Sequence record: MN508624.2
DNA length: 64,000 nt
Strand: one strand, 5' to 3'
Origin: Enterobacter phage EC-F2
In this document: positions 4,982 to 31,074 of the stretch, one piece after another
How positions within the stretch are numbered: the stretch's first letter is position 1
Layout of the letters: every line of letters begins with the position of its first letter
Program-made: the position numbers and the translations under genes
The notes under the pieces: model-generated
What the model saw: the letters and a program-made list of their open reading frames with translations, nothing else
The model's database searches: none
Told to the model about the DNA's origin: nothing

Positions 4982-5122
4982 TTACCCCAAACAGATTTTA
5001 CATTTACAGAGAGGACATTCCGCCTCTTTAACGCGCAAGCGCTTTGTTGCTGTTCGCTTCGCTGTGTTGTGATCATACACATGCAAACAGCGATAACAGA
5101 TCACCAATCGTTTAGCCGTCAT
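4982..5122 (-). CDS. hypothetical Cys-rich mini-protein (about 46 aa, MTAKRLVICYRCLHVYDH...CPLCKCKIC)
   Basis: Found by manual translation; it is below the 60-aa cut-off of the supplied track. It has a C-x2-C...C-x2-C-x-C-x2-C zinc-ribbon-like pattern. Confidence 0.25.
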   Translation of the reverse strand: MTAKRLVICYRCLHVYDHNTAKRTATKRLRVKEAECPLCKCKICLG

Positions 5123-5579
5123 AACCACCACCGCAACGAACATCACCTTCAATGAACAGTTCGCGGTTATCTCTCAGGAGATTGTATTTCTTTTCGAGTT
5201 CCGGCCCGAATGCGTCCGCGTCGTCATACCAGTCATAGTCATAACTTCCGGTTTCATCGTCGTATTCCGGTTCGTCGCCGCGCTCATTGAAGTGAACGAT
5301 TTTAACATCATCCAGATTCAGTTCTTTCAGCTTGTCCCAGATGCGGGTTATTTCGACGCTATTACATCCGAACGCTTCCAGTGTGATTGTGCCGTCATCG
5401 TGTATTTGAGGTAAATCCCAGCGAGGACGAGTATCATCAAACATATCCATCAGAGATTCAACGTTTGACTCACCGTAAATCTTTGCAACTTCCTGTTCTT
5501 TACCAGGGCGGACAAGTCCGACCCCGATGATAAAACTACTGCTTGAGCTATTGCTAACGAACCCAGAACGAATCTTCAT
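5112..5579 (-). CDS. hypothetical protein, 'MKIRSGFVSNSSSSSFI' family paralog A (155 aa)
   Basis: Its N-terminal 17 residues are identical to those of ORF 9017-9529. The acidic C-terminus carries YDYDWYDD motifs. Confidence 0.5.
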   Translation of the reverse strand: MKIRSGFVSNSSSSSFIIGVGLVRPGKEQEVAKIYGESNVESLMDMFDDTRPRWDLPQIHDDGTITLEAFGCNSVEITRIWDKLKELNLDDVKIVHFNERGDEPEYDDETGSYDYDWYDDADAFGPELEKKYNLLRDNRELFIEGDVRCGGGYDG

Positions 5580-5767
5580 CGTCTTGCCTCATATTTCGCG
5601 TTCTCCGCGATTTTCTCATGATACAGGTTGTATGACAACACCAGCGGGATACAAGCTACTATAAGCCCGATGATAGCCAGTTGATATTCGCGTTTATCGA
5701 ACGCCATGAATGTAATCGTAGCGCCCAGAATAAACACACCTAACGCAATGATGAAGAATAATGTCAT
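5576..5767 (-). CDS. small membrane protein (63 aa, two predicted TM helices)
   Basis: Two hydrophobic segments: FFIIALGVFILGATITFMAF and LAIIGLIVACIPLVLSY. Confidence 0.4.
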   Translation of the reverse strand: MTLFFIIALGVFILGATITFMAFDKREYQLAIIGLIVACIPLVLSYNLYHEKIAENAKYEARR

Positions 5768-6390
5768 TTTGGCAGGGTATCCATTTCACGAGATTTTGCT
5801 TTCAGGATGTCAATCACAGTAGTCATCGCCTGTTCTACATCACCATCATAGTGAATCAGGAATGTTTTGTGAAGTCCCATGATCAGACGATTGATGATAT
5901 AAGCCATTTCTGACGGCAACAGTTTACCATTCTGGCGATCGTACTTTCCAAACAAGCGGTAGAGTTCTGCGCTGTTGCCTGGCTTCTCAATGCTGAAATT
6001 ATGCATCCCAGACAGAATACCATCCAGATACAGAACAGTTTTGTTATCACTGCGCAGGTGTCCGCCGACCTTGTAGTAGTTGCTGAATACATACGGTTTT
6101 TCGCGGATATCTTCGATATCGAAATCACCATGATCTTCGATGTTGCCAACATGGGCGAAGAAATGATGATCTTCCAGTTCGAGAAGGATTGCACCCTTTT
6201 TGTATGGGAATCCGACTAAATCGATCTGCCAGCCATTTTCACCGACAAAGACATCATCGACAACCACGAAATCCGGCAGCATAGGCGCGTATGCGTGGTT
6301 CTTTTCGTTGTTTTCACGATAGGCTTGTGGTTCGGACAGATACAGGATATCGCCTTTTACAACTTCACCCCAGAATACGTTACGTGACAT
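5764..6390 (-). CDS. hypothetical protein (about 208 aa, start MSRNVFWGEV)
   Basis: The ATG at 6390 follows a terminator hairpin and the RBS GAGGAAAATAAT. The longer ORF starting at 6429 would overlap that hairpin. Confidence 0.4.
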   Translation of the reverse strand: MSRNVFWGEVVKGDILYLSEPQAYRENNEKNHAYAPMLPDFVVVDDVFVGENGWQIDLVGFPYKKGAILLELEDHHFFAHVGNIEDHGDFDIEDIREKPYVFSNYYKVGGHLRSDNKTVLYLDGILSGMHNFSIEKPGNSAELYRLFGKYDRQNGKLLPSEMAYIINRLIMGLHKTFLIHYDGDVEQAMTTVIDILKAKSREMDTLPK

Positions 6391-6407
6391 ATTATTTTCC
6401 TCAATAT

Positions 6408-6423
6408 GCCCCCTTTCGGGGGC
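6408..6423 (-). terminator. terminator hairpin GCCCCCTTTCGGGGGC downstream of the vWA gene
   Basis: GC stem with a TTTC loop between the vWA gene stop (6432) and the next ORF. Confidence 0.5.
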
Positions 6424-6431
6424 GGTCATTG

Positions 6432-8678
6432 TTAGATTTTGACTTCTTTTTCTTCCAGGACGATTTCACATTCGAATGATGTGGTTTCCCAGACTTTCCA
6501 GAAATCGGATGGAATATTATCTTCTTTCGGAAGAATATCTTTTGCAGCGATAGAAACTTTGGTTTCTTCGAAGTCCAGATCCGCGAACCATGCATGGGCT
6601 ACTACAACACCGTACATTACGCGACTTAAACGGGCATTCAGTTTACGGACTTCCTGAATCGTTGCCTTTGTCTGCTTATCAAGATACTCGACTACCTGAT
6701 CTTTGTCAAGCGCATCCAGTTCAGATTTCACCTGATCATAAGCCCACAGGATAATCAGGTCGCCGTTGTTCAGTTTCTTCTTACCTTCTTCACGCTTCGC
6801 GACGGTAGCCGCTACAGCAGGAAGGGAGGAAACACCCTTGATTTTCACGTTCAGTTCTTTCGACATGTAAACATCAGTCGATTCTGTGCGCTCAACCTTC
6901 GGAGAGAACCCGTAATCACGAATACCCTGTTCAGACAGCCATTCACCCGCAGCCTCACCAAAGCGCTGTTTCAGCCCTTCTGCGTTGCGCAGTCCGATCG
7001 CGTTGTCACGGAAGAACTTCATAACCTTCTGACGGCCTTTCAGGATTTCCAGACGCACGTTATCAGTCACGAACTCTTTACCGCTTAACCCGCGAGTCAT
7101 GCCACGGTTAACCAGAGGCAGAGAGGTAAAGTCTACCAGAACAGACATACGATCATCACCGATTTTTTCGAGCGGCTTGATAGTCAGGCCAGAAGCACGA
7201 AGGTTTTTCAGTGTCGGAATATCGGTTTCCAGCGGCAGAACTTTAACGTTCACGATACCATCTTTAACGATGGTGAAGTTACGCACCTGCTTAGTTTCGA
7301 CTTTTTCCGGCAGACCGAATTCTTTCTGTTTGCTTTCTGGGATAGTCACATACCCTTCCAGATCCGTGTTGATGGAAATGTTCGGACGGGAACTGTTACC
7401 CACCAGATGTTTAACCGATACTTTGGTTGTGGTTTGGGTAAATTTCGGTGTCCAGACTTCATGCGCTACCATTTGCGCCGCCAGTGCTTTACGTTCTTCT
7501 GGGGTTGCAGCGTTTGCGATCTGTTCGGTCAGTTGATCCAGTGTATCATCTTCTTTCTGTACCGTCTGACGGCCTGTGCGGTTGTACGCCCAGTGCTCAG
7601 AAGACAGGTCGATCACTGTGTCAGTTTGTGCCAGCAGTTCGAGCGCATCAACCAGAGTGAACGCGTTTTCGTCTGGAACCATGTTGTAATCAATACCATC
7701 AACGAAACGCTGTGATGGATCTACAACAGCCTGTGCAATCAGGTCTTTCGCGTTGGAGTAGTCCTGTTTGGTAAAGCAGTTGTCATACGCCTTGATCAGA
7801 CGGACATCACCCAGCTTTTGAAGCACTTTCCATGCCAGATCAGGGTTCATTGTGTGCAGTGCATGATAAAGCACGACATACAGAACTTGCTGTTCGCTGG
7901 CGATGTTCGGATCGAAACCGTCAACATCGTTGATCGCGTTTTCACCCAGCGCCCAGATGTTTTTGATGTGTTCTGGAACCAGCACAACACCGTTTGCAGC
8001 GTTCAGGACATACACGCGCCCTTCGTCCAGGTAGATCGCGTGGGTAGCATCAGCAACTTTGACTTCGATACGTGCGGAAGTCTGCGCGGTGATGATTTCG
8101 TTAAATGCTGGTTCGTATGCGTCGAAACCTTCAACGAATTTGTGCAATGCGTTGGTTGCTTCTGCCATTTTTTCCAGCAGAGGACGGTTTACATAATAAC
8201 CGTATTCCAGGAACGCGATACTGTTGAAAGTCAGTGGCAGAACCGCACACGCTTTCAGAATATCATCGGTACGCCAGCAGTTATCATAACCATCGGTCAG
8301 GAAGATCAGGCTGTTCAGGTTGCCGTTTTCGGATTGCAGATCGGTAGCGATTTCCGCAGCCAGATTCAACGGCTCAACAAAGCCAGTACAACCCGTAGGT
8401 TTCAGGTAACGGTCGATAGCCGCGCAGATGTTAGACAGGTCAGAGACATTGCTAACCTTCTCACCACGGAACACCGTGCCGTAATCGCCTTTGCTGGAGA
8501 AGTACAGGATCGAAACGGTGTCATCCTGTTTAACCAGACTCGCCAGGTTTGCTTTCAGGTGTTTACGGATCTTAGGCAGTTCGTTGTACATTGAACCGGA
8601 TACGTCACACACGAAAACGTGGTTTGTCGGGGTTGGCTTCGATACAGCGTTTTTGAATTCGATATTTGTGATTGACAT
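6432..8678 (-). CDS. von Willebrand factor A (vWA) domain protein with MIDAS motif, 748 aa
   Basis: The N-terminal domain reads VFVCDVSGSM (MIDAS DxSxS), then TGCTGFVEPLN, then FLTDGYDN. These are canonical vWA/MIDAS elements. The remaining roughly 550 aa have no motif I recognise. Confidence 0.65.
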   Translation of the reverse strand: MSITNIEFKNAVSKPTPTNHVFVCDVSGSMYNELPKIRKHLKANLASLVKQDDTVSILYFSSKGDYGTVFRGEKVSNVSDLSNICAAIDRYLKPTGCTGFVEPLNLAAEIATDLQSENGNLNSLIFLTDGYDNCWRTDDILKACAVLPLTFNSIAFLEYGYYVNRPLLEKMAEATNALHKFVEGFDAYEPAFNEIITAQTSARIEVKVADATHAIYLDEGRVYVLNAANGVVLVPEHIKNIWALGENAINDVDGFDPNIASEQQVLYVVLYHALHTMNPDLAWKVLQKLGDVRLIKAYDNCFTKQDYSNAKDLIAQAVVDPSQRFVDGIDYNMVPDENAFTLVDALELLAQTDTVIDLSSEHWAYNRTGRQTVQKEDDTLDQLTEQIANAATPEERKALAAQMVAHEVWTPKFTQTTTKVSVKHLVGNSSRPNISINTDLEGYVTIPESKQKEFGLPEKVETKQVRNFTIVKDGIVNVKVLPLETDIPTLKNLRASGLTIKPLEKIGDDRMSVLVDFTSLPLVNRGMTRGLSGKEFVTDNVRLEILKGRQKVMKFFRDNAIGLRNAEGLKQRFGEAAGEWLSEQGIRDYGFSPKVERTESTDVYMSKELNVKIKGVSSLPAVAATVAKREEGKKKLNNGDLIILWAYDQVKSELDALDKDQVVEYLDKQTKATIQEVRKLNARLSRVMYGVVVAHAWFADLDFEETKVSIAAKDILPKEDNIPSDFWKVWETTSFECEIVLEEKEVKI

Positions 8679-9017
8679 TTAAATTTTCTCGTATTTGAAT
8701 TTTTCTAAAATTTCGTTAACTTTATTGCTTACTGCTTCGACTGTACGATCACACCCGAACTTACGCGCCAGGAGTTCAACGTATTCATCCATCGTAGTGA
8801 GTTTGGATTCAGCAACGTCAAACGCAAGCGCATACATTACCGGATTCCATACCCGAACGATTTGGAGAGTATACTCGTTCAGTTCAAATCGTTCAAGATA
8901 TTTTCGCAAAGAAAATACATCAAACGGTGCGGGACGATCCTGGCTAAAGGGGATCGACTCCCCTAATGCATAGCGAGGCATAACAACACAAACTTCTGTT
9001 TTCAGTTTATTATCCAT
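8679..9017 (-). CDS. hypothetical protein (112 aa)
   Basis: ORF lying between paralog B and the vWA gene. Confidence 0.4.
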   Translation of the reverse strand: MDNKLKTEVCVVMPRYALGESIPFSQDRPAPFDVFSLRKYLERFELNEYTLQIVRVWNPVMYALAFDVAESKLTTMDEYVELLARKFGCDRTVEAVSNKVNEILEKFKYEKI

Positions 9018-9529
9018 CAGTGATGACTCTTTGATGTGTGTTCAAGGTTGCGGAAGATGTTTCCATGTTCCAGTTGAGTTCCGATCGGGCCGCATTCATC
9101 GGAGTACGTGAATTCATAGATAAACACGCCGTCCTGATTGCCGAACTTCGTGTTGTACTCTTCGTACAACCACATTTTGATCAGAGCGTCTTTCTCTTCT
9201 GTTTCCAGATCGTACCAGTCTCGCCCGTCATACGCAAGCGCGATTTGAGGGTTTGAACGGTAGCGGGTTTCCGCGTTTTCTTCGGTTTCCCAGTCATAGC
9301 GCTTATCGTCGTAGAACGATTCAAAGCTATTACCCAGATGACCGCCTAAGTCACGATGAACGTGACTGACCACTTCTTCCGCTGTCAACGGCGGATCGTA
9401 GTAACCACAATCAGGGACGCAATCGCCCATCATTTCGCGCAGGTTGTCGATATTAGTCGGATCTTTCGGGAACCGGACGATGAAACTACTTGATGAACTG
9501 TTGCTCACAAAACCAGAACGGATTTTCAT
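9017..9529 (-). CDS. hypothetical protein, 'MKIRSGFVSNSSSSSFI' family paralog B (170 aa)
   Basis: Same 17-residue N-terminus as 5112-5579. The acidic, W/Y-rich C-terminus carries YDWETEE and DWYDLETEE. Confidence 0.5.
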   Translation of the reverse strand: MKIRSGFVSNSSSSSFIVRFPKDPTNIDNLREMMGDCVPDCGYYDPPLTAEEVVSHVHRDLGGHLGNSFESFYDDKRYDWETEENAETRYRSNPQIALAYDGRDWYDLETEEKDALIKMWLYEEYNTKFGNQDGVFIYEFTYSDECGPIGTQLEHGNIFRNLEHTSKSHH

Positions 9530-9759
9530 TTTACATCCTCAAATTGTAAGTTTTCTTTGGTTGCGTTCGCAATGGCTTTTTCGTTGTTCAGTGTTACTAT
9601 GCGCAGACGTTCGCCAGTAAAGCCGTCGCATTCAGTGATACTCACCCAGTCAAAAGGTTTAGCCATTTCAATCGCACGTTCCAGCGATACGGTAGAACCG
9701 ACTAAATCACTAAATGTATAGTAATCTTCGCTTAAACTTTCAACAGTATAAATTTTCAT
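9526..9759 (-). CDS. hypothetical protein (77 aa)
   Basis: Its start and stop overlap the neighbouring ORFs. Confidence 0.35.
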   Translation of the reverse strand: MKIYTVESLSEDYYTFSDLVGSTVSLERAIEMAKPFDWVSITECDGFTGERLRIVTLNNEKAIANATKENLQFEDVK

Positions 9760-10283: not shown

Positions 10284-10305
10284 AAAAAGCCCCTTTCGGG
10301 GCTTG
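10284..10305 (-). terminator. terminator hairpin AAAAAAGCCCCTTTCGGGGCTT
   Basis: GC stem with a TTCG-type loop and flanking A/T runs. Confidence 0.55.
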
Positions 10306-10886: not shown

Positions 10887-11807
10887 TCAATCAGACAGTG
10901 CAAGCACTTTTTTAATTTGTTTTGCAATTGCTTCGATCACCGGAACCGAAACAGAGTTCCCTGCCTGTTTATATGCTTGCTTCTTGCTTGTCGGGATCTG
11001 GAATGAATCTGGGAAGCCCTGCAAGCGGAAACATTCACGCGGGGTTAATCGTCGTGGGTTCTTCCCGTCCTGTAACACCAGACATTGAACACCGTCCTTG
11101 AAGTATTGGGCTGTTATCGTCCCAGTACACACAGAATCGCTTGTGACGGCCTGATAACCGAAACCCTTACCGTTTGCCTTATTTCGTTCCTTACGCTCTC
11201 TAAAGCCTTTCCATGCGTTATCTGAGAGGGTGAATGAATCATCAGCATCTTCGAGGATGTCGCCTACGCGTGTAGGTGTACGCGGGGGAACAGGAAATGA
11301 AAAGAATACATCATCCAGGAAGCAGACAATAAACACGCGTTCCCGTCTTTGGGGTAGTCCGAAATCCTTTGTGTTCAGGCGTTGATAGAATACGTTATAT
11401 CCTTCGGCCTCCAGAAGCCCGTAAATCGTTTTAAACGTCTTCCCCTTGTCATGGGTTAGCAGTTCAGGCACGTTCTCAAAGAACAACACACGGGGCTTTT
11501 TAGCGCGTATAATGCGGAGGATTTCGAAGAACACCGTACCGCGTACATCATCAAAGCCCAGTTTCAATCCGGCTTTACTGAACGCCTGACACGGGAACCC
11601 CGCGAGCAGGATATCATGATCAGGTACTTTGTTTTCATCAATGGCGAATAGATCACCCTGTAGGTTATCATCGCCCCAGTTTTCGATATATGTTTGCTGT
11701 GCGAACTTGTCGATTTCAGACGTTAAAAGGCATTCGACACCGCCGAACGCCTTATCAAATCCTAATCGAACCCCGCCCACACCAGCGCAGAGGTCAATTA
11801 TTTTCAT
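10887..11807 (-). CDS. dcm: DNA (cytosine-5)-methyltransferase
   Basis: C5-MTase motifs are in the canonical order. Motif I is DLCAGVGG, motif IV is GFPCQAFS, motif VI is ENV and the C-terminal region carries QAGNSV. Confidence 0.8.
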   Translation of the reverse strand: MKIIDLCAGVGGVRLGFDKAFGGVECLLTSEIDKFAQQTYIENWGDDNLQGDLFAIDENKVPDHDILLAGFPCQAFSKAGLKLGFDDVRGTVFFEILRIIRAKKPRVLFFENVPELLTHDKGKTFKTIYGLLEAEGYNVFYQRLNTKDFGLPQRRERVFIVCFLDDVFFSFPVPPRTPTRVGDILEDADDSFTLSDNAWKGFRERKERNKANGKGFGYQAVTSDSVCTGTITAQYFKDGVQCLVLQDGKNPRRLTPRECFRLQGFPDSFQIPTSKKQAYKQAGNSVSVPVIEAIAKQIKKVLALSD

Positions 11808-29630: not shown

Positions 29631-29923
29631 CAGTAAGTAATCTCCGCAAACTGCATTCTACGCTCAATCGCATGGATAGCGTTATCACGCTGTTCTTTGT
29701 TTTCATATCCAGCCCAGGTAATCGGGGTTGAACAGATCAGGTGAAAAGTGATTGCTGGGTGTCTCTTCCCTTCAACAACGATTGTTGCATCATCTTCGAT
29801 CCAGGTTACGTGATCCAGATTCACCGGATAGTTTCTTACGGTAACAGATTCACCAACCAAAGGCGACACGTCCAGAATATCACGATCGCTGACATATGAT
29901 TTAATACGAGATACGATTAACAT
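29630..29923 (-). CDS. hypothetical protein (97 aa)
   Basis: ORF only. Confidence 0.35.
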   Translation of the reverse strand: MLIVSRIKSYVSDRDILDVSPLVGESVTVRNYPVNLDHVTWIEDDATIVVEGKRHPAITFHLICSTPITWAGYENKEQRDNAIHAIERRMQFAEITY

Positions 29924-31074
29924 TATTTTAACTCCACTGCATATACATCGGTTTCAGGGGCTTTGTGTACGCGCATATCTTTACCACATACCGCATAAGC
30001 CGGACAGTTACGGCAACCGTTATGATCCTTGTTGCCCGTCAGTTCTTTACGGAACTGTTTTGTTTTCGGGTGTTCCCAGATATCCTTCACAAAATCTTCG
30101 GCTTCCAGAACATCCAGACCTTCTTCCCAGCCACCTTCAACCCAGCGTTCGGTAAACGAGCAAGGGAAGAACTGACCACGTTCGTTGATATAAGAGCTAA
30201 ACATCGTCGCTTCACAGTCTTCGGCGTATTGCTTGTACTGTTCGAAGTTCGGGTGTCCCTCCATCGCTTCAACGAAAGCGGGGGCTGAACAGCTATCGAA
30301 TCCAAATCCTACACCAGAATCGAGGCAATATTCAACAAGTTTTTTATATTGTTCGCGGGTAACGGTGTCCCAGTTCTTACCGCGTCCTTTTTGTTTCAGT
30401 CCCAGGAACACGATCGCGTTGACTTGTTTCAGGCGCGGATCATTCTTCACGGCATCAACCACGTTAAACGCATCATCATAGGTTTTCGAGCTAACCATGA
30501 AGTGAAGGTTGATTTGCTGTTGTCCGGCTTCTGTCAGGTTCGCTACTGAGTCGAAAGCGACATCAAAACCAGCGTGTTTATAAACCGATACCGCAACAGC
30601 CCCAGCAACCGCCGCTAAACGCGCTGCAACGTCTTTTGATACGTCAGCAATGGTAAGGTTCGGCACAATGCCTTTAGAACGCGCATACGCCATCATATCG
30701 AACATATCGGGGTTTGTTTGCCCCTGTGCATCAGCACCGAGTGCGCATTGAGTAAGCCAGGGCATTTTGTCGATGATTTTTTTGAAGTTGGCAAGATCCA
30801 TGTTGAACCCGTTCGGGTTATTGGACTTGTAGCAGAACCCGCAGAGTTTACCCGCTGGACCGTTGCATTTGGTAGTGATCTCGATATCGAGAATTTCGGG
30901 GAATGGTGCGTATTCTGGATCGTGGGAATATGTTGCACCCCAGCGAGCGAATTCACCAGTATCAACGTTGAAATTATAGTTGTAGAACTTCGAGCGAGCG
31001 AAGCGCATATTGCCGTGTTGATAGATGAACAGGGACGGCGCTTTGATGCTGGTAACGATATCGACAGTTTTCAT
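29923..31074 (-). CDS. Cys-rich putative Fe-S / radical-SAM-like protein (about 383 aa from MKTVDIVTS)
   Basis: LDIEITTKCNGPAGKLCGFCY is a Cx7Cx2C cluster in the sequence context typical of radical-SAM cores. A second C-terminal cluster reads CRNCPAYAVC. Confidence 0.35.
   Translation of the reverse strand: MKTVDIVTSIKAPSLFIYQHGNMRFARSKFYNYNFNVDTGEFARWGATYSHDPEYAPFPEILDIEITTKCNGPAGKLCGFCYKSNNPNGFNMDLANFKKIIDKMPWLTQCALGADAQGQTNPDMFDMMAYARSKGIVPNLTIADVSKDVAARLAAVAGAVAVSVYKHAGFDVAFDSVANLTEAGQQQINLHFMVSSKTYDDAFNVVDAVKNDPRLKQVNAIVFLGLKQKGRGKNWDTVTREQYKKLVEYCLDSGVGFGFDSCSAPAFVEAMEGHPNFEQYKQYAEDCEATMFSSYINERGQFFPCSFTERWVEGGWEEGLDVLEAEDFVKDIWEHPKTKQFRKELTGNKDHNGCRNCPAYAVCGKDMRVHKAPETDVYAVELK

Follow-up and report, generated by a model that had tools for sequence, protein, structure and literature searches.

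Why should two proteins of one phage, unrelated over most of their length, begin with the same 17 residues? The question is raised by a 64,000-nucleotide (nt) stretch of Enterobacter phage EC-F2 (MN508624.2), here called the window and used for all coordinates without a locus name. In it, two minus-strand genes, A (5112–5579) and B (9017–9529), encode proteins with the identical N-terminus MKIRSGFVSNSSSSSFI and lie on either side of a block containing a vWA gene. In this study, we found that the first 16 of these residues form a tag that stands at the head of hundreds of unrelated small acidic proteins, mostly of phages, and that the tagged genes almost always travel with one radical-SAM enzyme. 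From comparative sequence analysis, we consider it probable that the enzyme acts on the tag, which would then be a recognition and modification handle for a radical-SAM maturase.

The window belongs to a T4-type myovirus. Positions 5000–9700 are 97–99% identical to other phages, among them Enterobacter phage HK6 and Cronobacter phage GAP161, and the complete genome of HK6 (Straboviridae, Pseudotevenvirus; 177,845 bp) is 99% identical to the window. Protein A is 155 amino acids (aa) in length with an isoelectric point (pI) of 4.3, and its 'A-type' body ends in GGGYDG (family consensus YGAGRNG). Protein B has 170 aa, a pI of 4.7 and a 'B-type' body with the C-terminus LEHGNIFRNLEHTSKSHH, and belongs to phrog_7397 (unknown function). 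Defined by open reading frame (ORF), codon comparison and a hidden Markov model (HMM) of the tag, residues 1–16 (MKIRSGFVSNSSSSSF in both proteins) are encoded on the minus strand at 5532–5579 in A and 9482–9529 in B; the expected N-terminal peptides are MK, IR and SGFVSNSSSSSFIIGVGLVR or SGFVSNSSSSSFIVR. Both genes overlap the upstream gene by ATGA, which couples them to it, and both have a GAGG Shine–Dalgarno sequence.

The two ORFs and their 17 identical residues agree with a preliminary description of this DNA, as does the likeness of the 5′ ends over about 50 nt, which amounts to 40 of 51 identical positions, no exact run being longer than 8 nt. All the nucleotide differences between the two 5′ ends are synonymous and include AGC versus TCA for serine; synonymous differences with such six-fold serine codon switches indicate an old divergence of A and B under selection at the protein level. 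When the window was translated in six frames, the tag HMM, built from 383 tagged proteins, matched only A and B (E 2.5e-11 and 9.6e-11; the next best match had E 0.7); in the complete HK6 genome, it matched only their orthologues. The tag shared by A and B is thus far beyond chance. When the profiles of the A and B families were aligned with hhalign, the first ~35 columns were matched with a probability of 99.1. The similarity is confined to these columns, and the acidic W/Y-rich C-termini that had been thought to converge are mid-protein stretches without homology. Nor are A and B duplicated genes, as had been proposed: there was no local duplication, and they belong to two old, separately widespread subfamilies, with GAGRNG-type motifs at the C-terminus of A and YSDE.G...LEHGNIFRN..H..SHH at that of B. 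The B orthologue of phage RB43 (L006:6069–6551) has only 160 aa, stopping early at ...LEHGNIFP and lacking the conserved RN..H..SHH tail; a frameshift, a natural truncation or a sequencing error is possible.

How far does the tag extend beyond this phage? Its serine-rich 16-residue consensus is M-K-[IVT]-R-x-G-F-V-S-N-S-S-S-S-S-F. In a logo of 448 unique tags, conservation (in %) was M94, K98, [IVT], R100, x, G94, F98, V95, S99, N100, S100, S99, S87, S75, S96 and F94, and two hydrophobic residues came after F16. In the ORFs that carry it, the tag always runs from the initiator methionine onward, and it occupied the first ORF residues in all 27 non-T4-like IMG/VR loci fetched. Given the established specificity of methionine aminopeptidase, the lysine at position 2 should prevent removal of the initiator methionine, so that the first residue of the tag is retained. 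The codons at the tag positions are mixed, all six serine codons and both arginine codon families being used, which indicates selection on the peptide and not on the nucleic acid; a role of the conserved 5′ end at the RNA or DNA level was rejected because of the mixed codons at every tag position. The N-terminus is invariant even between homologues whose bodies are only ~30% identical.

An exhaustive profile search with the A family recovered 3728 cluster representatives at E ≤ 1e-3, and nearly all of the 150 matches listed had a length of 130–170 aa, an MK.R.GFVSNSSSSSF start and a GAGRNG-type end. Scanning IMG/VR with the tag gave 489 matches. In large uncultured phages, tagged genes form tandem arrays of up to 14 per locus by motif scan, and of 15 in the same locus (L028) by HMM scan. 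Pooled over all loci, 374 tagged proteins fell into 108 body clusters unrelated by BLAST, 75 of which were singletons; the bodies ranged from 19 to 279 aa (median 131) and differed in secondary-structure make-up. The tagged proteins are acidic (median pI 4.8), with 82% below pI 5.5 versus 28% of the other small ORFs in the same loci. The notion of a leader-like conserved N-terminus on polymorphic proteins is therefore borne out more widely than was claimed, the tag heading at least 108 unrelated body types. In structural models made with AF2 (pLDDT 91.4 for A and 82.0 for B), residues S13–I/V20 form strand β1 and residues 1–10 have low confidence.

The preliminary description did not recognise the family, and neither did our searches, which found no Pfam or NCBIfam model, PDB match or literature description for it. 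A and B had no match in Pfam, NCBIfam, PADLOC and PDB sequence searches or in a fold comparison; Pfam recognised no family in 147 A-family members and 10 body-class representatives; a 42-aa tag profile retrieved short fragments only from a set of 5.8 billion proteins; phrog_7397 (B), of 'unknown function', was the only PHROG among the tag-protein families; and the literature searched contained no account of the tag, of the arrays or of what the enzyme does. The largest body class (36 of the 374 proteins; seen in L011, L012, L014, L018, L020, L022, L024, L025, L030 and others) has a cysteine pair right after the tag (SF[IV]CD.CG...) and further Cys/His residues beyond, and resembles a zinc ribbon joined to the tag. 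With cysteines 2–5 residues from the tag, thioether chemistry would be possible in this class.

What, apart from the tag, do these loci have in common? We clustered the other ORFs of the 27 loci, which had been fetched by the tag alone, and obtained one widely shared family, the radical-SAM enzyme, which was present within 10 kb in 21 of the 27 and on the strand of the array in all 21. A second set comprised 80 loci fetched by the enzyme, 75 of them non-T4-like and 5 T4-like. At least one tagged gene lay within 10 kb in 73 of the 75 non-T4-like loci (median 4, maximum 13), and the tagged genes found by motif scan (in 68 of the 80) were all on the strand of the enzyme, often less than 100 bp away; in the five T4-like loci, the tags were 20–25 kb from it. 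No other gene family occurred in more than 10 of the 75 loci, which argues for a two-component system, and a third conserved component was rejected on this ground. Among the 50,697 cultured-phage records of INPHARED, A matched 173 and the enzyme about 173, in the same genera, and the complete HK6 genome has exactly two tagged genes and one such enzyme. Outside the T4-like phages, the enzyme has its nearest relative in L042 (65% identity), where five tagged genes are packed round the enzyme gene: one of the A type, one of the B type (42% identical to B) and three others. This locus has no vWA homologue, and L010 has a similar layout. The linkage is near-obligate.

The enzyme of the window (29923–31074, minus strand; 383 aa) was found by tblastn from array-linked homologues (46% identity, E 2e-83). 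It has a Cx7CxxC motif (CNGPAGKLCGFCYKSN) and an auxiliary-cluster domain of the SPASM/twitch type with the motif CX12GX4C (CEA..G....C); it matches Pfam SPASM at 3.3e-5, and homologues match both Pfam Radical_SAM (2e-7 and 3.8e-14) and SPASM. The window protein belongs to phrog_7293 (unknown function) and is annotated 'radical SAM protein' in relatives. Members of the family are roughly 270–410 aa in length when intact, carry a C..C..CYKSN radical-SAM motif and a conserved N-terminal extension of their own (YNYxFNxxxGFFARWG), and have a weak likeness in NCBIfam to mycofactocin, tungsten-cofactor and sactipeptide maturases. The cysteine triad (C70, C78 and C81 in the window) is invariant in 15 aligned homologues. 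Its spacing is Cx3-14CxxC in the family, mostly Cx3CxxC, and Cx7CxxC in the T4-like version, including the window (CNGPAGKLCGFC); spacers of 7 and 14 residues occur in the enzymes of L031 and L026. In the auxiliary domain, C287-x12-G300-x4-C305 together with C262 and C357 are invariant or nearly so, and with only about four auxiliary cysteines conserved, this part of the protein can be classed as twitch-like or as an abridged SPASM domain. Among PDB sequences, the best relatives are the twitch domain of BtrN (3.5e-5, auxiliary domain only) and SkfB. In L030 (7474–9782), an intein splits the radical-SAM gene: the N-fragment ends in ...CAFC and is followed by a Hint domain (PT-HINT 1e-7, Intein_splicing 6e-7), and the C-fragment resumes at ...VHN|CYKGN, placing the intein inside the CxxxCxxC cluster motif. 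This site of insertion suggests that the enzyme matters to the phage. The enzyme of L025 (10141–11376) has an insertion of ~70 residues at a site other than that of the L030 intein.

Two loci have unusual tags. All nine tags of L054 carry G6T, which occurs nowhere else among 564 tags, and all four tags of L107 carry G6S plus S9A, while BLAST detects no similarity among the bodies within either locus. A concerted change of the tag across unrelated bodies is as predicted for one shared, genome-specific recognition partner.

The tag and the enzyme also occur together in bacteria. A tag scan of one genome per species gave 118 matches, mostly on contigs of metagenome-assembled genomes with a phage-like look. 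Eight genomes or more, among them members of Acidobacteriota, Verrucomicrobiota and Chloroflexota (Ca. Oscillochloris fontis), carry a four-gene cassette that encodes, in order, an SMEK_N plus NACHT NTPase of 946–959 aa, which also matches PADLOC Avs2 models; a protein of ~130–145 aa; a tagged protein of 134–137 aa starting with MRIRTGFVSNSSSTSF...; and a radical-SAM/SPASM enzyme. The cassette lies at L144:6754–11490 and L124:6736–11502, and is also present in L122, L135, L137, L139, L141, L142 and L145; in L124, two Phage_integrase-family genes come after it on one side. The link with a NACHT protein places the tag/enzyme pair in the setting of a conflict system, and the cassette is a candidate for a defence system, one not recognised as such by PADLOC.

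Taken together, these data make it probable that A and B are the two substrates, in the window phage, of a two-component post-translational system. The first ~12 residues would be a flexible tail, and residues 13–20 (SSSF plus hydrophobic residues) would be the strand β1 that anchors the tail in each body. The enzyme would bind the tail and modify it by radical chemistry, for which our first preference is a three-residue cyclophane on F7-V8-S9, an FxSxx-like motif; our second preference is the conversion of serine to formylglycine, as by the related dehydrogenases anSME and BtrN, and our third is epimerisation. The modification would activate or stabilise small acidic early effectors, and the variable bodies would differ in the targets or activities they provide, with a probable part in host takeover or counter-defence. 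Several features speak for the proposal that the tag is the substrate: one enzyme appears to serve many proteins (374 in 108 body clusters), it resembles peptide and protein maturases and twitch-domain enzymes, AF2 has low confidence for residues 1–10 in two models that are otherwise confident, and the same pair, with a tagged protein of 134 aa, is part of the conserved SMEK_N–NACHT cassette of bacteria. A more specific version, which we put forward tentatively and on balance doubt, is that the one enzyme installs a crosslink or an aldehyde on the universal tag and so activates or stabilises unrelated acidic effectors, up to ~15 per locus, with a mirror version wired to bacterial NACHT/STAND sensors.

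Several points weigh against an enzyme that acts on the tag. The link between the two is a genomic association only, and in the window ~20 kb separate the enzyme from B and ~24 kb separate it from A. The window enzyme falls below the Pfam Radical_SAM threshold (E 0.01) and has the non-canonical Cx7CxxC spacing, and no PqqD/RRE-type domain was detected by Pfam in three homologues. The concerted tag variants could have another source, gene conversion. L054 and L107 are two of only three loci among the 75 whose enzyme lacks a near-invariant glutamine (Q187 in the window; motif G.KQVNIH), an association with the tag that gives p 0.003 in a post hoc Fisher test; however, under a fairer null, the chance that two sequences deviating at 3 and 4 of 68 conserved columns have such a column in common is ~0.17, and we have downgraded the covariation of enzyme and tag at Q187 to a weak lead.

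Two further objections also speak for an alternative that we regard as unlikely: the tag may be an intrinsic motif of a very divergent superfamily, for example a Lys/Arg/Ser-rich segment for ligand or cofactor binding or for oligomerisation, and the enzyme may be linked to it through making the ligand or cofactor or sharing the pathway, and not through modifying the tag. From S13 onward the tag is a structural β-strand in the models, S13–F16 and the two hydrophobic residues forming a core strand in both, so that some of its conservation may be structural; the profile similarity of A and B likewise runs past the tag, through β1 and into the start of helix 1 (~35 columns), and the conserved GAGRNG of the A-family C-terminus could pair with the N-terminus. 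Moreover, BtrN works on a small molecule; as it is the best PDB match and, for the auxiliary domain, the nearest relative of solved structure, a small-molecule substrate is possible. An intrinsic motif does not sit well, however, with bodies of 19–279 aa that form 108 BLAST-unrelated clusters of different secondary structure, and the ten most conserved residues are those that AF2 cannot place. The tag also starts at residue 1 without exception, a constraint that a ligand-binding loop would not need, and the concerted changes at position 6 across unrelated bodies fit a macromolecular reader better than a small ligand.

Could the tag instead be a targeting signal, for packaging into the capsid and injection, for export, or for delivery to a compartment or a protease? 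A short N-terminal tag on many unrelated small proteins is the architecture of such signals, its tail is predicted to be flexible, and the proteins are acidic, like many injected anti-restriction proteins. The capsid-targeting sequence of T4 internal proteins, to which the preliminary description had likened the tag along with secretion signals, is a short conserved N-terminal tag, of ~10 residues and ending in an (L/I)xE site, on unrelated small proteins of T4-type phages. Neither analogy found support. No (L/I)xE site of the prohead protease is present near the tag, the first glutamate being at residue 28 in A and 33 in B, and there is no hydrophobic h-region of a signal peptide, no lipobox and no twin-arginine motif. 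The context of A and B is neither late nor structural: next to the baseplate module, they belong to an early-type minus-strand block whose genes are small and non-structural, and ATGA overlaps couple them to the genes upstream. The tag is found in non-T4 phages and, unlike a virion signal, in a chromosomal cassette of bacteria without a virion. Instead of a component of capsid, portal or secretion, the tag has a radical-SAM enzyme as its sole constant partner, which favours recognition by an enzyme over secretion or targeting to the capsid. A literature search for virion proteomics of the RB43/KP15 clade found none. Overall, we judge targeting to be improbable, clearly more so than an intrinsic motif.

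If the enzyme modifies the tag, which known systems does the pair resemble? In several systems of peptides that are synthesised ribosomally and modified post-translationally (RiPPs), one promiscuous maturase serves many precursors with a conserved leader, as in the ProcA/ProcM prochlorosins and the Nif11 and NHLP leader families. The phage loci share with these a single enzyme gene linked to many tandem substrates that are conserved in an N-terminal segment and hypervariable beyond it. They differ in that the substrates are folded acidic proteins of 80–230 aa and not short peptides, that the shared segment is just 16 residues at the extreme N-terminus and probably the modified site rather than a discarded leader, that the enzyme is a radical-SAM protein without a detectable RRE domain, and that the system is overwhelmingly phage-encoded. 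The combination of a radical-SAM domain and a C-terminal auxiliary-cluster domain (CX9-15GX4C) is that of anSME/AtsB and BtrN, and anSME oxidises a serine or cysteine in a short motif of a full-length protein, the tag being serine-rich. Nevertheless, the tag lacks the (C/S)xPxR motif of sulfatases, none of the substrates is a sulfatase and no NCBIfam model of anSME matched; in the tag logo, no serine is followed by Pro/Ala-x-Arg as in (C/S)-x-(P/A)-x-R. The likeness to BtrN is weak (E 3.5e-5, confined to the auxiliary domain). With glycyl-radical proteins (PFL/GrcA, RVxG[FY]) the system has in common R4-x-G6-F7 in the tag and a radical-SAM partner, but the spacing in the tag is one residue shorter and the partner has a SPASM/twitch domain, which is missing in the activases; in addition, the glycine is not invariant, G6 being replaced in ~6% of tags, including all 13 of L054 and L107.

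A three-residue cyclophane, the chemistry that we prefer, has a parallel in the triceptide or FxSxx-COOH systems (FxsA with the radical-SAM/SPASM enzyme FxsB). In conflict systems with vWA and MoxR proteins, Kaur et al. (2020; PMC7159879) report peptides with a C-terminal FxSxx that are accompanied by radical-SAM/SPASM enzymes. Residues F7-V8-S9-N10-S11 of the tag fit the aromatic-x-x or FxSxx pattern, and a radical-SAM/SPASM-type partner and a conflict setting are common to both. In FxsA, the FxSxx motif is at the C-terminus of a precursor processed by a peptidase, whereas the motif of the tag is N-terminal on intact proteins, and the vWA protein of the window is not linked to the tag system. 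No NCBIfam model of FxsB or XyeB matched the enzyme at E ≤ 0.01. One SPASM-type maturase for many substrates with a shared N-terminal segment is thus known from RiPPs and anSME; what appears to be new is a phage-borne version in which the proteins acted on are folded and are addressed by a 16-residue N-terminal tag.

Why, then, do A and B flank a vWA gene? The genes between them (5576–9017, minus strand), which we treat as context only, are those listed in the preliminary description and encode a 63-aa protein with two transmembrane segments (tm63), a 208-aa protein (p208), the 748-aa vWA/MIDAS protein and a 112-aa protein (p112). The p208 ORF has 221 aa from the first ATG, and both its PHROG match and the HK6 annotation begin at M14. 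The vWA protein (6432–8678) has a DxSxS motif (DVSGS) and matches Pfam VWA at 1e-5 to 2e-6. It was suggested that the direct repeat made by the shared 5′ ends could mediate insertion or excision of this block. Two ~50-nt direct repeats do bracket the vWA gene, and in L042 and L010 the A-type and B-type genes are close neighbours and a vWA gene is absent, which makes a past insertion of the block probable. Yet the repeats are identical at only 40 of 51 positions, and exact matches of 8 nt cannot drive excision. The order B–p112–vWA–p208–A, with unchanged spacing, was found in 9 of 9 relatives examined, which span three T4-like groups (RB43-like, GAP161/HK6-like and KP15-like) and include RB43, RB16, Lw1, CfP1 and KP15-type phages; tm63 was undetected in two KP15-like loci and present in the other relatives examined. 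An intervening segment that does not vary among relatives had been named beforehand as counter-evidence to the excision idea, and this is what was observed. The block also lacks the features of a mobile cassette between direct repeats: there are no long near-exact repeats, and the enclosed genes are present in all nine relatives.

The vWA gene has a history of its own. We found homologues of it in 503 phage records, among them Ackermannviridae (49% identity), compared with ~173 for the enzyme by tblastn, almost all T4-like; in Det7, the vWA gene alone is common to the window block. Judging from this distribution, it is a widely exchanged phage gene that moves on its own among phage families. 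Ackermannviridae (Det7, Dickeya and Kuttervirus phages) have full-length homologues with 45–50% identity, and phages of Rhizobium and Alishewanella have weaker ones. The 27 array loci and L042 yielded no vWA homologue. A functional link of the vWA protein with the tag system was rejected, as the vWA gene is present without the system in other phages and the system without vWA in the arrays. The conserved order in T4-like phages, together with vWA in phages without the system, means that the excision idea fails. The synonymous differences with six-fold serine switches, a sign of old divergence, and the bodies of A and B, which are unrelated past column 35, likewise leave little room for a recent local duplication. 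We consider it very improbable that the shared 5′ ends are direct repeats that move the 3.4-kb vWA block or that A and B arose by such a duplication. Given the compact clusters of L042 and L010, the T4-like layout is best read as the dispersed remnant of a compact enzyme-plus-array cluster; A and B would flank the vWA gene because this ancestral cluster was dispersed in the T4-like lineage, and not through mobilisation by repeats.

Upstream of B, the same minus-strand block encodes a C5 cytosine DNA methyltransferase (10887–11807, minus strand; 306 aa; motifs FPCQ and ENV) ~1.4 kb away, with a Dcm-like annotation in relatives. Between ORFs of 92 and 90 aa, a strong terminator-like hairpin is present at 10287–10304 on the minus strand (AAGCCCCGAAAGGGGCTT, then TTTTT). 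If functional, it would make B, the vWA block and A one transcription unit that begins just downstream of the hairpin; in total, the count of terminator-like sites is not above that of shuffled sequence. A promoter scan gave 12 sites versus 13.6 expected and was not meaningful. Some GenBank records (e.g., PP889464.1) carry the product name 'head-tail adaptor' for the A orthologue and 'minor tail protein' for the vWA protein. The former label is based on a match of A residues 75–146 with phrog_132 (E 1.2e-8). We rejected A as a head-tail adaptor, as the match is partial, another A-type member lacks it and the location is non-structural; neck and connector genes are annotated elsewhere in HK6. 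Since the A and vWA genes lie in a non-structural minus-strand block, both labels look like propagated misannotations.

In summary, follow-up of two phage genes with an identical N-terminus led to a tag that heads a multitude of unrelated proteins and to the radical-SAM enzyme with which it travels. In practical terms, the 'head-tail adaptor' and 'minor tail protein' labels now spreading in GenBank can be corrected. The system is within easy experimental reach, since RB43, RB16, KP15 and their relatives have a single enzyme and two candidate substrates and can be grown on E. coli, Klebsiella or Enterobacter. If our interpretation is true, hundreds of 'hypothetical' early phage genes would share one handle, findable by its 16 residues, and depend on one enzyme. 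The system could reveal new radical-SAM protein chemistry on a serine-rich N-terminus and a new class of enzyme-matured phage effectors and, through the NACHT-linked cassette, a new effector module of bacterial immunity could emerge. The logic of RiPPs would then be applied to folded proteins in the arms race between phages and their hosts.

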